DNA of 64,000 nt from a virus (lineage: Duplodnaviria > Caudoviricetes). The position numbers and the translations under genes are program-made. A model generated the notes under the pieces. The model was not told where the DNA came from, did no database searches, and saw only the letters and a program-made list of their open reading frames with translations. The stretch lies in IMG/VR virus record IMGVR_UViG_3300022660_000043; one strand, written 5' to 3'. Shown here piece after piece: positions 2,555 through 33,732 of the stretch; positions within the stretch are counted from its first letter, which is position 1, and every line of letters begins with the position of its first letter.

Positions 2555-5500
2555 TTAATCTTCCATTTCTTGGGATAAATAAAGCTTTTTATAGAAAGAA
2601 AAATATATACCAATACCATCACAATATAGGTAATATCTCTCTTGATTGTTAGTCTCGCTTATTACTATCTGAGATTTTTCTCTGAACTTACCTAAATATA
2701 GAGCACCTACAGGTCTCTGATTAATATCTAATAACTCAATGATAGGTGGATTAGGCTGTTCAATCCACAAGGTAAAAAGCTGTGCTAAAGATTTTCCCTC
2801 TTCCATTACGGTCCCTCATTTCTATGATCCCAACAATGCCAGGATTCTCTTTCTCTGCCCCAAAAGAACTGATCCATAAAATGACCCTTACCTAAATAAG
2901 CATCATACTCATCTAACATATTCTCTGCGGTTTCAAGTTCTTTTTTATAAAACTCTCTGCACTCACCATACTGCCTGTACACGCAAAGTAGACTAAAATC
3001 ATTATTGCCTTCTCTCACTTGCTTACAATAAGCTTTATACATAGAGTCTAGTATGTTGTCGAAGAGTTTAATTACAGTTCTAAGACCTTTCCTACTAAAG
3101 CGCATTACCCTAAACTCTGCCACACTTTTAATATACTCAAAACCAGTATGTTCCTTATTAATTGCTTTCTCAACCAAAGCTTTAAATAACTCCTCTTGTT
3201 CCTCTGCTGACTGAGAAGTTGTATTTTCAAATTCAATCATAATATATAACTCCTATAAATCTTATTATATAATACAATAAAATAAAAAGAAAAGCTCCTT
3301 ATAAAAAGGAGCAAATCTTATAGCTCTACAAAGTCAAAAGGATCATTAGGTTCCCAGCGAATATCTACCTTATAGGGCATTCTAGTCTTCTGACAGCTGG
3401 TTTCCAAAAAATTAGGTCTCATCTCAATACGCTTCTGCATATAAGCAACTTCCTCTGGTGTAGCATCAAACTTACCATAGCCATCATCTTCGCCATATCC
3501 ATAAGTTTGTACTTCACACTTAATTTTAGAAGGGCCTGCACACTTGTTTAATACTTCCTCAAAGAAAGTCCAGCCAGCTAAATCATCATAGCAAATAGGT
3601 TCACCACCACATAAACCTTCGCCTACAAAATTAGTAGTATCGGAAGTAACCTTTACTTTAGAAAATATAATCATAATTACACCTCTTCATCAATTTCATT
3701 AAAAGCAGTTCTATCTAAACCGTCTGCCCACTCCCAGAATAGATCATATACCTCATCTATATCTGCGGCTGCAAAATCACCAAGCTCCACTATTGCGGCA
3801 GTAACAATATCTTCTTTTTCACTTGAGCTTGCACTTTCCCAGGAATCATAAGTCCAGCCTTGTAAACCTGCCCAGAAAAGATCAATAAGTCTATCTCTAA
3901 TTTGCTCAGTCATTACTATACTCCTTTTAGTAGGTCTACATAATTTAGCAATAAAAAGAAGCCTAAGTTAATAGGCTTCAAAAATGTTTCTTCATATACT
4001 TATTTAGCTTCTTTGTATACTTTGGCTTAACAGGTACTCCTAAAGCTTCAGTCAGTACTCTGCCTTCGTATTCACAGCCTTTAGGATATATAACTCCAAG
4101 CTTAGTATAGCCTTGCCAGACTGCCATAGGTATAGGTTTAAAAATATTTTGGTCTATTCTATCTGCCATTACCAATCTCCTTCTGCTGCAGAATCAAGAA
4201 GCCTTAGAATACCTGAGCTATTACTCGCCCCTGAGCAAGAACCGTACTCCGCTGATATATATTCACAATTAGCGAATAACCATTTAGCAAATTCTTCTTT
4301 AGACATCTTAGTTATCTTGTCCCACAAAGTTTCTGGTTTTGGTTCCAAAGGCTCTATCCCAAAAGCAAGCCCCTTGCCTATAGCTACCGGACATAGCTTC
4401 ATATAAGAAATAAACTCAAAAGCCTCAGACTCATTATTACATTTATATGCTTTATCAATATTCTCTGTAATTAAAAGATCTGTATCCACAGAAAAATGTT
4501 TCAAATTTAAGCCAGAGTAATAGTATTTCCTAGAGCCTTGGTAGATAGTAATTACATATTTAGTCATTATCTTCCTCCGGAATTACTTCAATACAAAAAG
4601 TCTTCTTAAGATTTTCTCTCTGTTCTTTGGTAGGCATTTCAAACTCCATATTATCATCTATGTAGAAAGTCAAGCCACCACCACAGAGCTTTATTGTAGC
4701 AACTCTTTTTGGTATCCTAATACTATATCCAACTGTAGCGTTTGGAAAGTTAATGGTACCTTCATTACGCTGTTCCATTAATCCACCTCCAAACCATATT
4801 TCTGTTTAAGTCTATCAAACGTCTTATGATAAGTACCAAAGTAATCAGCTACATGATCAAGCAAATCACTCTTAACATCTGCAAAGATCTTCTCAGCCAT
4901 AGCTCGCTCGACCTGCTTAATCTTATCATCAAAGTCTTTCTTAGACATACTTACCATAGGATTCATTTCTATAATCATTACTTACACATCCTTTCTTCAA
5001 GCTCTGCAAGAAAAGCACCGAAAGCTTTTTCATCCAGTGGTTTATGAGTATCACAGTAGTACAAAATCTTTGAAATTATTTCATGTGCTGCTTCACTTTT
5101 ATGACAATATCCTGCTTCTGCTAATACCTCAGCATAGCGCTCTGAATGACACTTTATTCGGTCAGCCATATACATATCATAAGCATATCTACAGGTATCA
5201 CAGTCATATGGTAAGCCGCAGAGGGTCTTGGCCATTTTTAAAGTCTTGGCATCCATTACGCTTAAATCTCCTCTAATTCACCATTAGCATTACGAATATC
5301 AATAATCTTTTGCTGCAGTTCTTCAGCTTTATCATAGAGCTTTTTATATTCGAGATAGCCCAAGCTACTTTTAGGATACTGATCCATGGCATTCTTACAA
5401 TAAGACTTATCTCCCTCACAGCAGATAATCAAATCAAAAATTTCATCCGGAGTAAAAGTAATAGAAACATCTTCTTTCAATACATAACACTTAGCCATAA

Positions 5501-6772
5501 TTTATTTATCCTCCTTAACGATAAGGTCTATCCGAATTAAAAATCAATTCGCTTACTTTAGAAGCAAGCTCAGGATCATTTCTCTTATAGGGATTATCCG
5601 GGATATGTCTCTTAGTTTCTTGCTGGGTTACAGGATTCGCTAAACGACTGTACACAAGTTTGAGCTTAGCTAAATCCTTAAGAAGCCCCTCCTCTACCTT
5701 AGAACTAAGTACGGCATATGCCAAAGTCTCACCCATATCATCAATTACTTCCGCTAAAAGGTCTATAGTAGGTTTCATTACTTATCTCCCCACTTAACTG
5801 TAACTTGTGCCTCATATCTATATCCATCAGATATATAAAACTCCGCATCAAAACCCTGAGCTTCTAAAAGCTTTACTATCTCGGGACCTACTACTTCAAC
5901 ATTAGGAAGATTCATTTTAGTATTCGTAAGATCAAGTACTACATTATATCTGCCAAGGTCAATAGCCTTACGAATTAAGGTCTCCGCATAATTTACGACA
6001 TACTCTTTAGCAAGAACCTTAAGTCTTTCCTCAGTTGCCGATCTGGCTTCTTTTGCTGTAATCATTTTCTATACCTCCATAATAAATACTATTATATAAT
6101 ACAATAGGCCTGGTCCTAAAACCAAGCCTATAAATAAAGTTATTAATTTTATTTCCTCTTAAAAGAGTCCAGCTTCTTCTGCTTCAAAAGATTTCATTAG
6201 GCATCTCATGCACATTCCAGTAAGAGTAGAGAATGGTGCCTTTTCTGGTACGGGATACTGACAAATACCATTCTCACAATAGACTCTCTTTGTGCCTTTA
6301 TCTTCTGTATGAGGACAAGTCCATGGCGTAAGTGTGGCAAGAGGTGTTTCAATCAAAGTAGCTGTAGCGGCAGTAGCCGTTCTGATTAGTACAAGAGCTA
6401 TAGCATAATCTCCATCTACCTTTTTAATTATTGCAGGATCGCCTTCAAAACTATAGACTTTATTTTTATCCATTATCGTCCCTCCTTAATTCTCTGCTTA
6501 CGTAAAGCCTTAGATTCTTGCTTATTAAGTACATGCTCTCTGGTGGCAAGTATTCTCTTCACTTGCTCCATATTAAAGTTTTGGTGATTACCACATCTAG
6601 CACACTCTTCATCTTGTTTGTCACAGCGACAGTCGGCGCAGTACTCAGATACATGATACAAATGATTGCGTTCATTTAATAGTTGTTTAGTATGCATGTT
6701 CTCCAAGGCTCGAATGTCGGCATAAGTATATTTATAATGAAAATAAAAACATGCCATCGCTGTACCCTCCAT
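2555..6772 (-). other. run of ~14 small hypothetical genes (2555-2806, 2806-3240, 3318-3674, 3677-3913, 3978-4175, 4169-4567, 4560-4778, 4778-4978, 4978-5256, 5262-5498, 5515-5778, 5778-6065, 6159-6473, 6473-6772)
   Basis: Tightly packed ORFs with GGAG/GAGG RBSs and TAATG overlaps, split by class-2 promoters and terminators. Confidence 0.8.
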
Positions 6773-6853: not shown

Positions 6854-7252
6854 TTAATCCTTATACTGTATTTCCTTACAGTCTACTGTCGGATAAGGAG
6901 TGAACATAGCATGAGTAAAAGCAACTTCAGTTACTACTGCTTTATCATCTGTATACTCTACTGCACCAGTTCCAGCCAAAGTAAATGCTGCACTGTATTT
7001 GAAATCTTTAAGTAGCTTAATATAGGTAGAGTCAAATATCTCGCCGTCTATTGCTACTACTCTCTTATCTTCAAGCATTGCCGTTCCTAAACCAATAAGC
7101 TTATTGTCTTCTGAGAGAATTGGAAGTGCTTTAGTATTACATAACTCTTTAAATGCTGGTTCATTAAACGCCTTCTCAAGAACTTCCTGTGGGTAGATTC
7201 TGCCATTCCTAGTTCCTTTTTCTGGATATGCATATTTCATAGTAACCCTCAT
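6854..7252 (-). CDS. protein resembling the N-terminus of T4 gp21-type prohead protease; catalytic His motif not seen
   Basis: TRNGRIYPQEVLEKA matches the NxNGRxYPxxVLxK motif of gp21-like proteases; no GELxHP. Confidence 0.5.
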   Translation of the reverse strand: MRVTMKYAYPEKGTRNGRIYPQEVLEKAFNEPAFKELCNTKALPILSEDNKLIGLGTAMLEDKRVVAIDGEIFDSTYIKLLKDFKYSAAFTLAGTGAVEYTDDKAVVTEVAFTHAMFTPYPTVDCKEIQYKD

Positions 7253-7262
7253 AATCTACTCC

Positions 7263-8114
7263 TTAATAATTAGTTATAATAACTTCTTTGCCTTTTCTAT
7301 TATTACCGTTTCTATTGACACTACGACGAACGTCTATTTCATGAATATTATAATCCTTAAATAGTTCACGGATAAAGGTAGTATCATTATTACTTACAAT
7401 AAGCTTACAGCCCTTAGCAGTAAGCTTATCACAGACTGTCTTAAGTCTAATAGTATCTTCTCTGGTCCAGCCTTCTTTCTGATAACCTACAAATCCGCCA
7501 GTCTTAATCTCTTCATCTGGATCATAAGGCGGATCAAAATAAACCCAATCACCAGGCTCTATGTCTTTGATAGTCTCAGCGTAATCGCCCTCTCTAATTC
7601 TTACACCTTTAAGAAAAGCAGAGAGCTCTCTAATTGCTTCTTCTTGCACTATATCAGGACACCTGCCATTTGAAGTTCTGCCTAAAGGTGTATTGAAGTA
7701 GCCCTTTGAATTAACTCTATAAAGACCATTAAAACAAGTCTTATTAAGATATACAGTTCTTGCTGTGATCTCAGTACTCGGTCGCTGCCAAAATCCGGGT
7801 TCTCGATCCAAGTCTCTTATTGTGTAATACCATTCTCCAGTAGCAAGCTTAGGGTTACAATGCTGCTCCTGATGAATCTTAAGCTCTTGAATTAAAGACT
7901 CAGGATACTGCCTTATTACTTTATAAAGATTTACTAATTCAGGATTAAGGTCACTAATAGTAGTATACTTGTAGCCAAGGTCAAACGCCAAAGCCCCACC
8001 ACCAATAAAAGGCTCATAAAAAACATGGCCATTAAGTTTTTCTACATCTATGTATTTCTTAAGTTCTGATAAAACTTGGCCCTTTCCACCTGGCCATTTA
8101 AGTATTGGTTTCAT
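7263..8114 (-). CDS. dam: Dam-family DNA adenine methyltransferase (likely GATC)
   Basis: LKWPGGK, EPFIGGGA (motif I), LNKTCFNGLYRVN, DPPY (motif IV), EVIITNY. Confidence 0.93.
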   Translation of the reverse strand: MKPILKWPGGKGQVLSELKKYIDVEKLNGHVFYEPFIGGGALAFDLGYKYTTISDLNPELVNLYKVIRQYPESLIQELKIHQEQHCNPKLATGEWYYTIRDLDREPGFWQRPSTEITARTVYLNKTCFNGLYRVNSKGYFNTPLGRTSNGRCPDIVQEEAIRELSAFLKGVRIREGDYAETIKDIEPGDWVYFDPPYDPDEEIKTGGFVGYQKEGWTREDTIRLKTVCDKLTAKGCKLIVSNNDTTFIRELFKDYNIHEIDVRRSVNRNGNNRKGKEVIITNY

Positions 8115-8382
8115 CTTCTGCCTCCTCGTCCTCGGGTGGTTCAGGTAAGTAAGTCCAATGAGTTACCCTATCTATACTACCTGGGATTCTCCACGAATAG
8201 CCCCAGTCACCCCACTCACAATAACCTTCTTTTACCATCTTCTTTCCACTGTACTGTTTACAAGCACAGAGTACTCTGATAGATACTTTACCATTTTTAT
8301 ATCTACTCTTCTTATCTGGGTCTATCTCTGGGAGTCTTTCATCTACGCTTATCCAATTAGTCATTTTCTTTATAACCTCCAT
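8098..8382 (-). CDS. DUF551-like phage protein
   Basis: WISVDERLP...VTHWTYLPEPP signature. Confidence 0.75.
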   Translation of the reverse strand: MEVIKKMTNWISVDERLPEIDPDKKSRYKNGKVSIRVLCACKQYSGKKMVKEGYCEWGDWGYSWRIPGSIDRVTHWTYLPEPPEDEEAEDETNT

Positions 8383-11300
8383 TTAATCATGATAGAACTC
8401 ATGAAGATAGCCACAGTCAATTTGCTGACCATCTTTAGTATCAATGATTTGTAAGGCATGAAAATCGTTCATGCCGCTATCTCCATCTATCATTACTAAT
8501 AAAGAAAACAAAATGCCATCTACAATTTCTTCTGTTGTTCTAGTGCTCTGCCTAAGCCAGTAGTTCTTTATATCTTTAACCTGATTAATAAATTGTTCTT
8601 GCTTGGTCATATTACTTCTTCCTCTGTAAGTTTTTTACCGCAGTAAGGACAGTATTTAAATTCCTGAGTCAGTTCTTTATCGATAACATTTCCGCTAATC
8701 CAGCCCCAGCCTTCCCAAAGGACTTTCTCCAAAGTCTTTCCACAGCAGATAAATGTCTGCTTAAAGATCTTATCTGGTTTCATCTTGGGGTTTTCTAACG
8801 AAGGCTCTTCAAGCACCTCTAGAATTATCTTATTCATAATTGCTCCTTAAGTTCTTTCATTCTTGCTATAGCTTCAGCCTCAGTCTTAAAACTCTTTTCT
8901 ACTACATAGAAGTTAGTAGAAGGCAGCCACTGCCAACAGATAAGTTCTTCACCTGTTTTAAGCTCCTCCCCATAGACACTATATTGCACCATCTTAAGAG
9001 GCTTACCCTTACGCGCAAAGTATTCTACTACTGCATATCTAGTCTCATAAGGTGCTGAATAGATTACATTAACCTTTGCTGCCCTACGATACTTCTCTTC
9101 AAATACCTCCATAGTAGTAGGTTTCTTAATTCCTGTCATATCAAAGGGCCTCCAATTCATTAAGTACCTGATCAAGCTTAGGTTGAACTACAGCAAGAAG
9201 CTCTTCTTGAAGATTCTCTCCATAAGCCTGCGCGATCTCTTCTAAGGTCTGGAGTTCAGTAATCTCACTCATCAAAGATTCATAGGCTTCTATTTTATAA
9301 AGCAAGCTGGATGCTTGTAAAGCTTTCTCTCTTGTCATATTAAAGTGCCTCTAATTCTGCTCTAAGCTCCGCTCTCTTTTTATCACAGTAATCAGCAATA
9401 AGCTTTGCGAGCTCTTCATCTGTAATTAAAATATTAGACGTCTCATCTGACTTACAAATATAAGCTTTCTTTCTAAAGAGCTTAAATCTCTGATATGGAA
9501 ATGAGCAGATAAAAGCTATCTTATCATAACGGCCAATCTGTGCTTCAAGCTCATTAGCTTTATCTATAGTTTCTTTTTTCATACTTCCTCAAGCTCCTTA
9601 ATCATAATAGGTACAATCTTAAACTCCTCGGTAGGAGCAACCATCTTTCCGGTATAACAATCCCTACCCTTGATATAATGCCAAGCCTGTTCCTCAGCTC
9701 TCTTCTTACTTACATAGATCTGAGCTTCTCTAAGCTGTGAACTAAACTTCTTAAGGCCACAGCTGTATTGGCCATTAGAGTACTTGATTACCCAAAGTCC
9801 TTTATCTGGATTCATATTACTTCTTCTCCTTCATATTAAACTGCAGGGTCTTAAGCTTAGTAGCCACATTCAGAAGATCACGGAAAGCCTGTCCCTCGGA
9901 AGTCTCTGTATAGAGATAATCAATTACCTTATCTAACTCTTTAATAGCCATATCCAGAGCTACTGCATCAGCTCTGGTGACAAAAGGCATAGCCTTATCT
10001 GCTCCAGGTCCCCAAAGAATACAGTTCTCTCCAGGCCAGCCTGCGTAGTAAAGAGTATTAGACATCTTAGTAGGTTTACATTTAATTATATATTGATGCA
10101 TCTTATCTCTCCTTATATTCAATAACAATACAAAGCTGATTATCCTTACCTGTATTTACTGCCTGCCAACTAACTACCTCAAGAGTAGGATTCTCTTTAA
10201 GCCAGTTATTAACCAGGTTATCTGCTGAGATCCAATGCTTAGTATCCTTTACGTAATAGTAATCCGAAACAAAGTGTTTAAATCCTGTTTTCATATAGTC
10301 CTCCAATTTAAAGTACTATAATATAATACAATACAAGAGTATATAAAAATAAAGCCTATAATAAATTTAATTACTATAGACTTTATTATATTAATTCTTT
10401 GACTTGCTTTTCAACATATACTCAAGCCAGTGCTCGTAGCAATCCATGTCATGGGGACACTTATCACAACCATCTGCTGAGTACATACATACAGCGTGAT
10501 AGCATTCAGGTTTAATCATCTATGTTATCCAACCTTTCGTTAAGCTCTCTAGCTTCCTCTTTAGGTATAGCTATTGCTGCCCCCATAACAACTACGAGAA
10601 AAAGAGACATAAGGCCACACAGAAGTCCGGATACAAAGAGTCCAAGAGCAGCCCAACCTGCTGCACTGAGGAAAGCCAAGAAGGCTGAGACAGCTACACT
10701 GAGAAACATAAGAGCAAGAAAGCAAGCGGCCATTTCCGCAAGACCTAGCCCTAAGCATCTAAAAAAGGGTTTCATTTCTTATCCTCCTCTGATCTTACTT
10801 TAGAGATCTTCGACATAACCTGCCAAGAAAGACGGTAGCAGGGAATATCCATGAGACCTGCTTCCTCAAGTCTCTGCGCTTTACGAGAACATCTCTCCTG
10901 TATAAAGTCAAGCTCTTCTTGTGTAAGCTCCAGAGTATAAGTAGGCTCCTTAGCAAGATCTACTCCTAGAAGCTTATATACTTCATTAGTCTTATCCACT
11001 TTAGCTAAGCCCTTTGACATCCACTTATCTACCATAGTAGGATCTTCAAATTTGTTATACATCTTTATCCTCCCCCATTCCCTCACGCAGCTCGAGGATA
11101 AGAGTAAGCACCTCAGCATAGGTAGTACCTCTACCAAGCCAAAAGGCAAAGCCTTCCTCATCTCCAGTACCTTTATAAAAAGTTTCACGTGACTTAGACA
11201 CAGCTTCTTTCTTTTTTAAGATAATAGCAGCAAGCTCATCAGCAAAGTCTTCTTTACCCTTCTTATAAAAAGATTTATAAAAAGCTGCTTCATCAATATT

Positions 11301-14601: not shown

Positions 14602-15105
14602 TTAGTTATAGTGTGTCTGAATATAGCTCTTCAAAACTAGGTCAAAGACGGGTTCGTCGTCATATAGGATCTGTTGAAGTTCTTCCTCAAGTTCATCCTC
14701 GTCAGTAGGAATGTCAGCTTCAGTTTCCCAGTAATCGAGGGGATCAATAAATGACCTAAAGTGTTTCTGAAACCACGAAAGTACTTCGAAGTTTTCATCT
14801 CCGGTAGTACAGTAGATAACGTCATCATTGTCACAGTCTTCATGAATCGTATCTATCAAGTTCTCAAATTCAATATCGAAATCGGAAGGACTGGTAATTG
14901 CATCTTGGAGAACCTCAAGCTCAGGTTTAGAGAGGTCACACTTTATGAGGTACAACTGACTTACATCATCTGGCCCATATCCGAGGAAGTCAGGAAGGTC
15001 TTTCTCCTTTCAGTGCTTGACAGCATTTTTAAGAGATCTGTCGATATGATATACTGAGTAACTTTCACCTCGATCATATCTATAGTATGTAAGATAAATT
15101 TTCAT
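14602..15105 (-). pseudogene. acidic hypothetical protein interrupted by an in-frame TGA at 15010-15012
   Basis: MKIYLTYY...AVKH*KEKDLPDFLGYGPDDVSQLYLIKCDL... reads in frame into ORF 14602-14955; RBS and TGCTAAATTAT upstream. Confidence 0.7.
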
Positions 15106-15160
15106 TATGGGAGTCTCCTTATTAAATTTATTAAGTCTGTATAATTTAGCAATAAAAAAG

Positions 15161-15193
15161 GACGAAGCCGGAGTTAAGCACGCCGGCTTCGTT
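15161..15193 (-). terminator. intrinsic terminator
   Basis: ACGAAGCCGG...CCGGCTTCGT followed by a T-tract on the minus strand. Confidence 0.85.
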
Positions 15194-15224
15194 ATTACTA
15201 CAATCACAATATTCAAAACAAACA

Positions 15225-15512
15225 AAATAAACTTAAGTTATAGCTACTTCCATTTCATAAGCTCTTGCTCCTCCAAAGCTACTAAAGGTCGGTGGGAATG
15301 TACGGGAACACTAGTTAATATAAATCTAATCTCCTACGTTGCTACTTCATTTTCTTAGCCCCTCCAATGGCACAACAAGTAAGGGTTGATCGGCTCACAT
15401 CAAACATAAGTCTAATAATAATCAATCTCTTAAGTTGCTACGTCATTTTCATAGTCCCTCCTCAAGACCCAAAGAAATTAAACGGTTATGTGGTACCGAA
15501 AAACATGTCAGT
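15225..15512 (-). repeat. three-unit degenerate tandem array, period 96-98 nt
   Basis: GCTAC cores at 15243, 15341, 15437; minus-strand consensus GGAGG..CTAWGAAAATGAMGTAGCAAC. Confidence 0.85.
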
Positions 15513-15786
15513 CTACATACTCATATACTCATCATCTTCGTCTTCCCAATCGTCGTCGGGCAAATCCATATCCCGGCGGCAGAGGAGAAGACCTTCGGGA
15601 ACATCCTCTTCTGTCTCCCTCTCGAACTCTTCTTTTGTTACCTCAGTAATTTCGTACTGACAATCTGCATCAAAGTGAAGAGCGAGGGCGAGGTGAGCGG
15701 GGGGTTTCGTTTTCAAGGGTTGAGGAAACATAGAACTCCCACTCATCATCCTCGTCTTTGATGTTAGTTATCTTAAAGTATTTCAT
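15513..15786 (-). pseudogene. acidic hypothetical protein frameshifted at a C6 tract (15699-15704)
   Basis: MKYFKITNIKDEDDEWEFYVSSTLENETP joins AHLALALHFDAD... only if one C is removed; GAGG RBS before ATG at 15786. Confidence 0.7.
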
Positions 15787-16232: not shown

Positions 16233-16303
16233 TTACATTTATATTATACCATAAAACGAAGGATTTGTAAATTGACAAAACAACCAAAGTTTAATTATTT
16301 TTC
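16233..16303 (-). promoter_or_regulatory. class-1 promoter repeat, copy 2
   Basis: TTTACA-N17-TATAAT, upstream AAACTTTGGTTGTTTTGTCAA. Confidence 0.88.
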
Positions 16304-24403: not shown

Positions 24404-24488
24404 TAAAAAGGGAGCACAGCCCAACGACCAACTGTGCTCCAAAAAGAAAGGAGGTGAAAAATGTATGCAAGAACTACAACGCCCGCAC
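24404..24488 (-). ncRNA. candidate small RNA carrying the anti-SD sequence UCACCUCCUUUCU
   Basis: Class-2 promoter 24489-24501, no ORF, terminator GGAGCACAG/CTGTGCTCC-CTTTTT. Confidence 0.65.
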
Positions 24489-24527
24489 ATTATATTATAC
24501 AATGTCGAAAACCAAAATTTAACTATT

Positions 24528-33574: not shown

Positions 33575-33675
33575 AAAAAACGACGACCTGTCCAGGAGGA
33601 ATAGACAAGCCGCCGCCAAAAAGGGAGGACTGCTGCTTTCGCAGCTAACTATGAAAAACCGAGGTTTCTAACCTC
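33575..33675 (-). ncRNA. candidate structured small RNA with anti-SD/anti-AUG tracts
   Basis: Class-2 promoter 33676-33689; hairpins GAGGTT/AACCTC and CTGC-GAAA-GCAG; terminator with TTCCTCCT loop and T6. Confidence 0.6.
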
Positions 33676-33732
33676 TATTATATTATACAGTATCCAAATC
33701 GCTTTTTTATTATTTCGTCCAAAAGTTTTTTA

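Follow-up and report, generated by a model that had tools for sequence, protein, structure and literature searches.

The window analyzed here is a 64,000-nt stretch of a 221 kb virus record with 38% GC, the standard genetic code and 31 tRNA genes, among them both Lys tRNAs and one Thr tRNA; the genome is 95% complete. The nearest cultured-phage helicases are those of Firmicutes phages (32–37% identity), and INPHARED phages gave no DNA match. The locus described here belongs to a stretch of short early cassettes, in which a promoter at 16271–16243 precedes four small ORFs. A tandem array of three units begins after the last stop codon of this cassette, at 15513, and stops at an intrinsic terminator; we found no terminator-like site between the promoter and the array. 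The features of the locus are as follows:

16243–16271, minus strand: sigma-70-type early promoter (11/12, extended −10; consensus match only), at the head of the cassette whose last element is the array
15513–15786, minus strand: last protein gene of the cassette, with a frameshift at six consecutive C near 15700; the gene is intact in relatives L031, L041 and L052
15438–15512, minus strand: unit 1, without the AT-rich first half
15454–15468, minus strand: SD of unit 1, with GGAGG at 15461–15457 in the loop of a 3-bp hairpin
15438–15446, minus strand: putative minigene 1, Met-Thr-amber; a second in-frame ATG at 15452 would give MKMT
15342–15437, minus strand: unit 2, common to L064 and, more distantly, to L073/L076
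15358–15371, minus strand: SD of unit 2, with GGAGG at 15365–15361 in the loop of a 3-bp hairpin
15342–15350, minus strand: putative minigene 2, Met-Lys-amber, as read from the sequence
15244–15341, minus strand: unit 3, with 97% identity to its L064 counterpart
15267–15279, minus strand: SD of unit 3, with GGAGG at 15274–15270 in the loop of a 3-bp hairpin
15244–15258, minus strand: putative minigene 3, MKWK-amber (MKRK-amber in L064)
15193–15243, minus strand: AT-rich tail past the final stop (80% AT)
15152–15192, minus strand: intrinsic terminator (arms 15162–15174/15180–15192, about −20 kcal/mol, then a T run)
15142–15150, minus strand: late-type promoter motif, GCTAAATTA, directly past the terminator

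The neighbors of the array are small ORFs of unknown function, among which no link to CRISPR was seen. The frameshifted form of the last protein gene of the cassette is present in at least six public contigs, and hence is not a one-off error. On the other side of the array, the AT-rich tail is a feature of all complete homologues (31–51 nt, 80–90% AT), and the terminator is as strong as a preliminary description of this DNA had proposed. The sequence GCTAAATTA recurs 5ʹ of many structural genes, as judged by eye without scoring. A 167-aa gene lies past the terminator (14602–15105, minus strand); it belongs to a family of 33 unnamed proteins, and an in-frame TGA stands at a position that is Trp in P0001 (96% identity). 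We consider that GCTAAATTA probably marks a late promoter of this phage. Since the motif adjoins the terminator, transcription of the next gene probably does not come through the array, which would make the array a 3ʹ element of an early transcript rather than a leader. The possibility of an antisense late promoter within the AT-rich block was rejected because the late motif differs.

The preliminary description had reported three minus-strand units of ~97 nt, and this was borne out. The units are spaced 96 and 98 nt apart, and a three-unit profile searched against the 221-kb genome recovered only its own units (E about 1e-18, which is so partly by construction; next E 0.65). Units 1 and 2 also match one another by blastn (E 2e-8). 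As described, GGAGG lies 10, 10 and 11 nt before ATG, and the mini-ORFs MT (or MKMT), MK and MKWK all end in TAG. Three such SD-ATG-stop cassettes in one array were seen in none of 1000 shuffles (shuffle mean 0.05). In unit 3, an extra 6 nt keep the frame, and of the three differences that separate this unit from its L064 counterpart, two lie in sense codons. The constant sequences were drawn a little too uniformly: unit 1 is not an exact match to the RACC.TTA motif, and unit 3 differs by two bases from the motif given for the unit ends. Each unit also contains a tract of 13–16 nt that is variable, and most tracts carry a GATC or GTAC palindrome. A function as restriction-site decoys was rejected, since the tract palindromes are not depleted in the genome.

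Eleven homologous arrays, each with two or three units, are present in related phage contigs. Neither outcome that would have refuted the preliminary description, a lack of homologues or homologues showing decayed duplicates of one protein gene, was observed. Six of these arrays (L064, L068, L069/70, L091/92, L093 and L094) were reached through searches with flanking proteins, without motif bias; the other five (L073–L077) came from a metagenome motif scan, all in one assembly, with a pattern that presupposed a minigene in one unit. Wherever both ends are present, the array lies between the stop codon of a gene and a terminator. At least four different genes precede it and several different terminators follow it, and the same upstream genes occur without an array in L031, L041, L052, L088 and L090. 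More distant complete relatives also lack it. Unit types are mixed between phages: L064 has counterparts of units 2 and 3 of the window, preceded by a different first unit. The tracts of units 2 and 3, which had been thought unique, recur in other phages. By its distribution among these sequences, the array behaves as an optional accessory gene block that is gained and lost as a module.

Motif and protein scans of IMG/VR gave chance matches or nothing, and a motif scan of GTDB gave chance matches only. A profile search found no array in 16 related virus records, nor, with filters too strict to prove absence, in 101 Clostridia-class genomes, and a covariance-model search of Rfam 15 gave no match at the gathering threshold or at a useful E-value. 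In the literature searched, which covers few subscription journals, we found no description of a phage array of such minigenes. Two relatives have other contents nearby. In L071, the place taken by the array in other relatives is occupied by an intergenic RNA (7130–7430) that has a promoter at its head and several ACCTCC anti-SD tracts, and positions 7715–8665 encode an HPr kinase (PF02603/PF07475), a Firmicutes carbon-control enzyme. In the closest relative, L064, a GmrSD/HNH gene and an EcoRI-type methylase lie just past the downstream gene of the array (3699–5986).

It is striking that the units, which are 85–98 nt long and mostly 43–72% identical to one another by type, all end in the same way. 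Each end has an SD, an ATG, usually a single codon (AAG or ACN) or, for the type of unit 3, three codons, and then a stop. This is true of all 13 units in the six arrays found without bias, with TAG as the stop in 12. Across 13 unit types, ATG, an A at +4 and an in-frame stop occur in every one and TAG in 12, whereas the commonest base at each of the nine positions 5ʹ of ATG occurs in just 5–9; the counts are not independent, since the units have a common ancestry and the pattern used to delimit them included these features. Profiles of the window units had, nonetheless, found the first homologues independently of that pattern. The Thr codon varies synonymously (ACG, ACC, ACT), and the other sense codon is AAG. 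In L064, L068, L075 and L091, the sequence ahead of the first minigene is unrelated and amounts to a plain, good ribosome-binding site, which indicates that function has been kept and sequence has not. Pairing energies for all 16 SD-start pairs (−9.3 to −13.5 kcal/mol) equal or exceed in strength the median for the phage's genes (−9.1). We saw no unit without a minigene between a gene and a terminator.

The amber stop is rare elsewhere in this phage, as had been noticed: of 197 genes with a good ribosome-binding site, 5 have TAG as their stop (2.5%), as do 15 of 405 in its kin (3.7%). It ends 16–24% of genes in three Clostridia samples, which are stand-ins for the host. AAG is a common codon in both the samples (18–36 per 1000 codons) and the phage (37 per 1000). 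No longer reading frame is conserved across units; a 27-aa ORF over unit 2 is out of frame in L064, and, by inspection, no frame beyond TAG is conserved that could yield a read-through or frameshift product. Anti-SD tracts are present in two small RNAs (24404–24490 and 33575–33680, minus strand), which pair with many gene starts; a special pairing of these RNAs with the array was rejected because the array units rank 41–138 of 249 starts.

Could these signals be neutral debris, left by decayed duplicates of a gene start or small gene? The region does tolerate decay, as both flanking genes are broken in this genome, and an A at +4 is typical of gene starts. However, in an AT-rich genome, ATG, the stop and the rare TAG outlast 30–55% divergence; a longer ORF is not conserved, and the signals are kept in 11 other arrays. 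We therefore consider debris very improbable. The explanation in the preliminary description that fares best is that of minigenes like lambda bar, since SD, ATG, frame and TAG are kept in homologues while the rest drifts. Together, the comparisons establish, at the level of sequence conservation, selection on translation start and stop signals in RNA that is predicted to be unstructured.

The folding predictions do not bear out the earlier view of the repeats as structured RNAs with a co-varying outer helix. The whole array region folds no better than shuffles (z = −0.62), and 15 homologous units, delimited in the register of the preliminary description, fold worse (mean z = +1.1; 14 of the 15 above zero). 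Cognate halves of the outer helix pair no better than non-cognate ones (−3.3 vs −3.2 kcal/mol; permutation p 0.39–0.52). A weak AU-rich hairpin 7–17 nt past the stop, located by motif search in 12 of 13 full-length units, is no stabler than chance. A tRNA-like fold was also rejected: the SD hairpin recalls a D arm, but the T-loop and acceptor stem are missing. The tracts of units 1 (15480–15500) and 2 (15385–15405), both on the minus strand, can pair with one another (−13.8 kcal/mol, p 0.014 vs shuffles); this result did not recur in L073 (p 0.56). Elsewhere in the genome, outside the window, a five-copy RNA array (G000:C1:187250–188420) represents a different family with no motif in common with the minigene array.

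The small hairpin with GGA in its loop is real: all 15 internal units examined contain a 3-bp stem whose loop carries GGAGG, and three versions of the stem keep pairing. We found no conserved nested fold beyond this stem. The units might therefore be a sponge for CsrA or another protein, whose binding site resembles a gene start by chance, and the string ANGGA is indeed present in 9 of 13 unit types. We consider this improbable. The stem is marginal, the first units lack such a hairpin, and a unit holds only 1–4 GGA per ~90 nt, mostly the SD. Unlike in CsrA/RsmA sponges, there is one loop GGA per unit, which is the sole conserved GGA and is the SD itself, and there is none in the loops of first units. 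No phage Pth, Pth2 or CsrA was found in the genome, and a sponge leaves the ATG, frame and stop unexplained.

Constant flanks around a variable tract, with unit types shuffled between phages, would also suit processed guide-like RNAs in which the tract directs a protein to its target. However, the tracts are inherited and shared between phages, several of them hold a GATC-ACC core, and they match neither three Clostridia rRNA operons (both senses) nor the phage genome above shuffles; one 14-nt AT-rich self match of the unit 2 tract was judged to be chance among 15 tests. A Nop-domain protein (PF01798) was not found in the genome (95% complete), and a conserved scaffold fold is lacking. Hence, guide RNAs seem more improbable still than a sponge. 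The least probable of the explanations is a pseudo-antitoxin array for a type III toxin, in spite of the tandem RNA repeats ahead of a terminator and the A-rich runs near the repeat ends of the window units. The GAAAU motif is found in only 1 of 13 unit types, there is neither a stable conserved fold nor an Rfam match, and the units are 85–98 nt long, whereas ToxI-class antitoxins are pseudoknots of 34–36 nt (PMC5086642).

What, then, is the functional significance of the array? Most likely, it is a tandem minigene module that would drive futile initiation and UAG termination, and so would act through ribosomes and not through a protein. We have good confidence that the array is transcribed and, judging by its conservation, translated. 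A strong early transcript would carry two or three minigenes at its 3ʹ end. Every unit would present an open, strong ribosome-binding site, with the units spaced so that ribosomes do not collide. A ribosome would start at AUG, add Lys or Thr, and reach UAG, where either release by RF1 or drop-off of the dipeptidyl-tRNA would free it to start anew. The product would be the cycle rather than a peptide.

As its most likely role, we tentatively propose that of a trans-acting sink: during early infection, the array would occupy host ribosomes, RF1 or Lys/Thr tRNA. RF1 is the only release factor to recognize UAG. Since the phage hardly uses this stop, and 16–24% of genes in the Clostridia samples end in it, RF1 loading would hit the host selectively; the phage would be spared further by carrying its own tRNAs. 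Minigenes of such build can strand tRNA as peptidyl-tRNA (PMC8012679), fMet-Lys-tRNA drops off fast, and without Pth it is Lys-tRNA that is depleted first (PMC10192219). ACT is classed among toxic minigene codons; on the other hand, UAA minigenes are reported to be more toxic than UAG minigenes, and a natural Met-Thr-stop minigene is harmless in trans in wild-type E. coli (PMC8708949). Together with the common use of AAG, these reports indicate that plain bar-type toxicity does not explain UAG. There are further points against a sink. It would also tax phage translation, and a phage Pth was not found. RF1 turnover is fast, so titration needs very high RNA levels. The minigene model also leaves the conserved middle of each unit unaccounted for.

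A bolder version of the sink is that the amber minigene RNAs drain RF1 and ribosomes purposely. Host genes ending in UAG would then stall, whereas phage genes, 97% of which end in UAA or UGA, would be completed, and ribosomes might also be helped past a UAG in the phage polymerase gene. Motif A of the polymerase (G000:C1:49266–49270, outside the window) is interrupted by five bases beginning with TAG. Three relatives without an array have an uninterrupted motif A, and are too few to mean anything. We regard purposeful draining as a long shot. If true, it would represent an RNA-only, stop-codon-selective host shut-off, and possibly a step to UAG recoding in gut phages.

An alternative to the sink is that the translated minigenes act in cis: ribosomes parked in the 3ʹ UTR could determine how stable the early mRNA is or how it is processed, or could shield 3ʹ fragments from 5ʹ-to-3ʹ decay after cuts in AU-rich stretches. 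The conservation of SD, ATG and stop fits this reading too, an AT-rich stretch follows every stop, and natural minigenes protect mRNA in cis (axe-txe, LEE1 and LEE4; PMC8708949). However, the known cases lie upstream of the gene that they serve, and here only a terminator follows; the same upstream genes do without an array in five relatives, and different genes precede it in others. A cis role also does not require UAG. We consider it unlikely, if a serious competitor. The strict UAG and the Lys codon are both accounted for by a different alternative, in which the units are decoy substrates for ribosome-dependent defense nucleases of the RelE/YoeB/HigB type that cut the A-site codon. Such nucleases favor UAG or lysine codons. 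The array is patchily distributed and lies among accessory early cassettes, where counter-defense genes are expected. Nevertheless, a substrate that can be cut inhibits a catalytic enzyme only weakly, and this candidate reading seems to us somewhat less likely than a cis role, although more so than purposeful draining. The explanations other than the trans sink, cis stability and the nuclease decoy, taken together, rank between the sink and the cis role.

Natural minigenes have so far been single oddities, such as lambda bar, CreT and the leader minigenes. Here, they would constitute a selected, shuffled and copy-number-variable module in an early accessory region that neither gene callers nor Rfam detect. 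In the event that the array acts in trans, it would be a protein-free means of commandeering or shielding translation, and it would offer a natural test of what minigenes are for. The phage otherwise avoids UAG, yet uses it strictly here.

Comparison with known systems places the array close to, but outside, several of them. Like ToxI, antiQ, CptI and the pseudo-ToxI of phiTE (PMC5086642, PMC3475682), it consists of tandem RNA repeats ahead of a terminator; unlike that class, whose repeats are near-identical, its unit types are mostly 43–72% alike, and its unit is about three times longer and has a conserved SD-AUG-stop in place of a conserved cleavage motif. It differs from CRISPR and TIGR guide arrays in that tracts are shared between phages, with no rRNA or self target and no TIGR Nop effector in the genome. 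The axe-txe and EHEC LEE1/LEE4 minigenes (PMC8708949) are likewise two-codon ORFs with an SD; Met-Thr-stop is found both there and here, as are AU-rich surroundings. They are found in leaders, 5ʹ of the regulated gene, whereas the array is a 3ʹ element, after which the transcript contains no further gene. In the RNA toxin CreT of CRISPR-linked CreTA (PMC8501985, PMC10097628), as proposed here, strong initiation signals and a mini-ORF act, and not the peptide. CreT, however, depends on either consecutive rare codons (archaeal type) or a stable hairpin, and CreA together with Cas represses it, whereas this phage 3ʹ UTR array has a single AAG or ACN, no codons that are rare in the stand-in hosts, and no stable hairpin. 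The anatomy of the units (SD, start, one to few codons, stop) is that of lambda bar, also from a phage, and of synthetic two-codon minigenes, with SD, AUG, sense codon and stop (PMC8012679, PMC2490762), and peptidyl-tRNA drop-off is a candidate in common. Lambda bar is a single AUG-AUA-UAA with a rare Ile codon, toxic mainly under Pth deficiency. The array, unlike bar, has common Lys or Thr codons, UAG, two to three tandem copies and a conserved spacer of ~80 nt, and is gained and lost as a module. Our best reading is that the array works like lambda bar or CreT, and is a member of neither.
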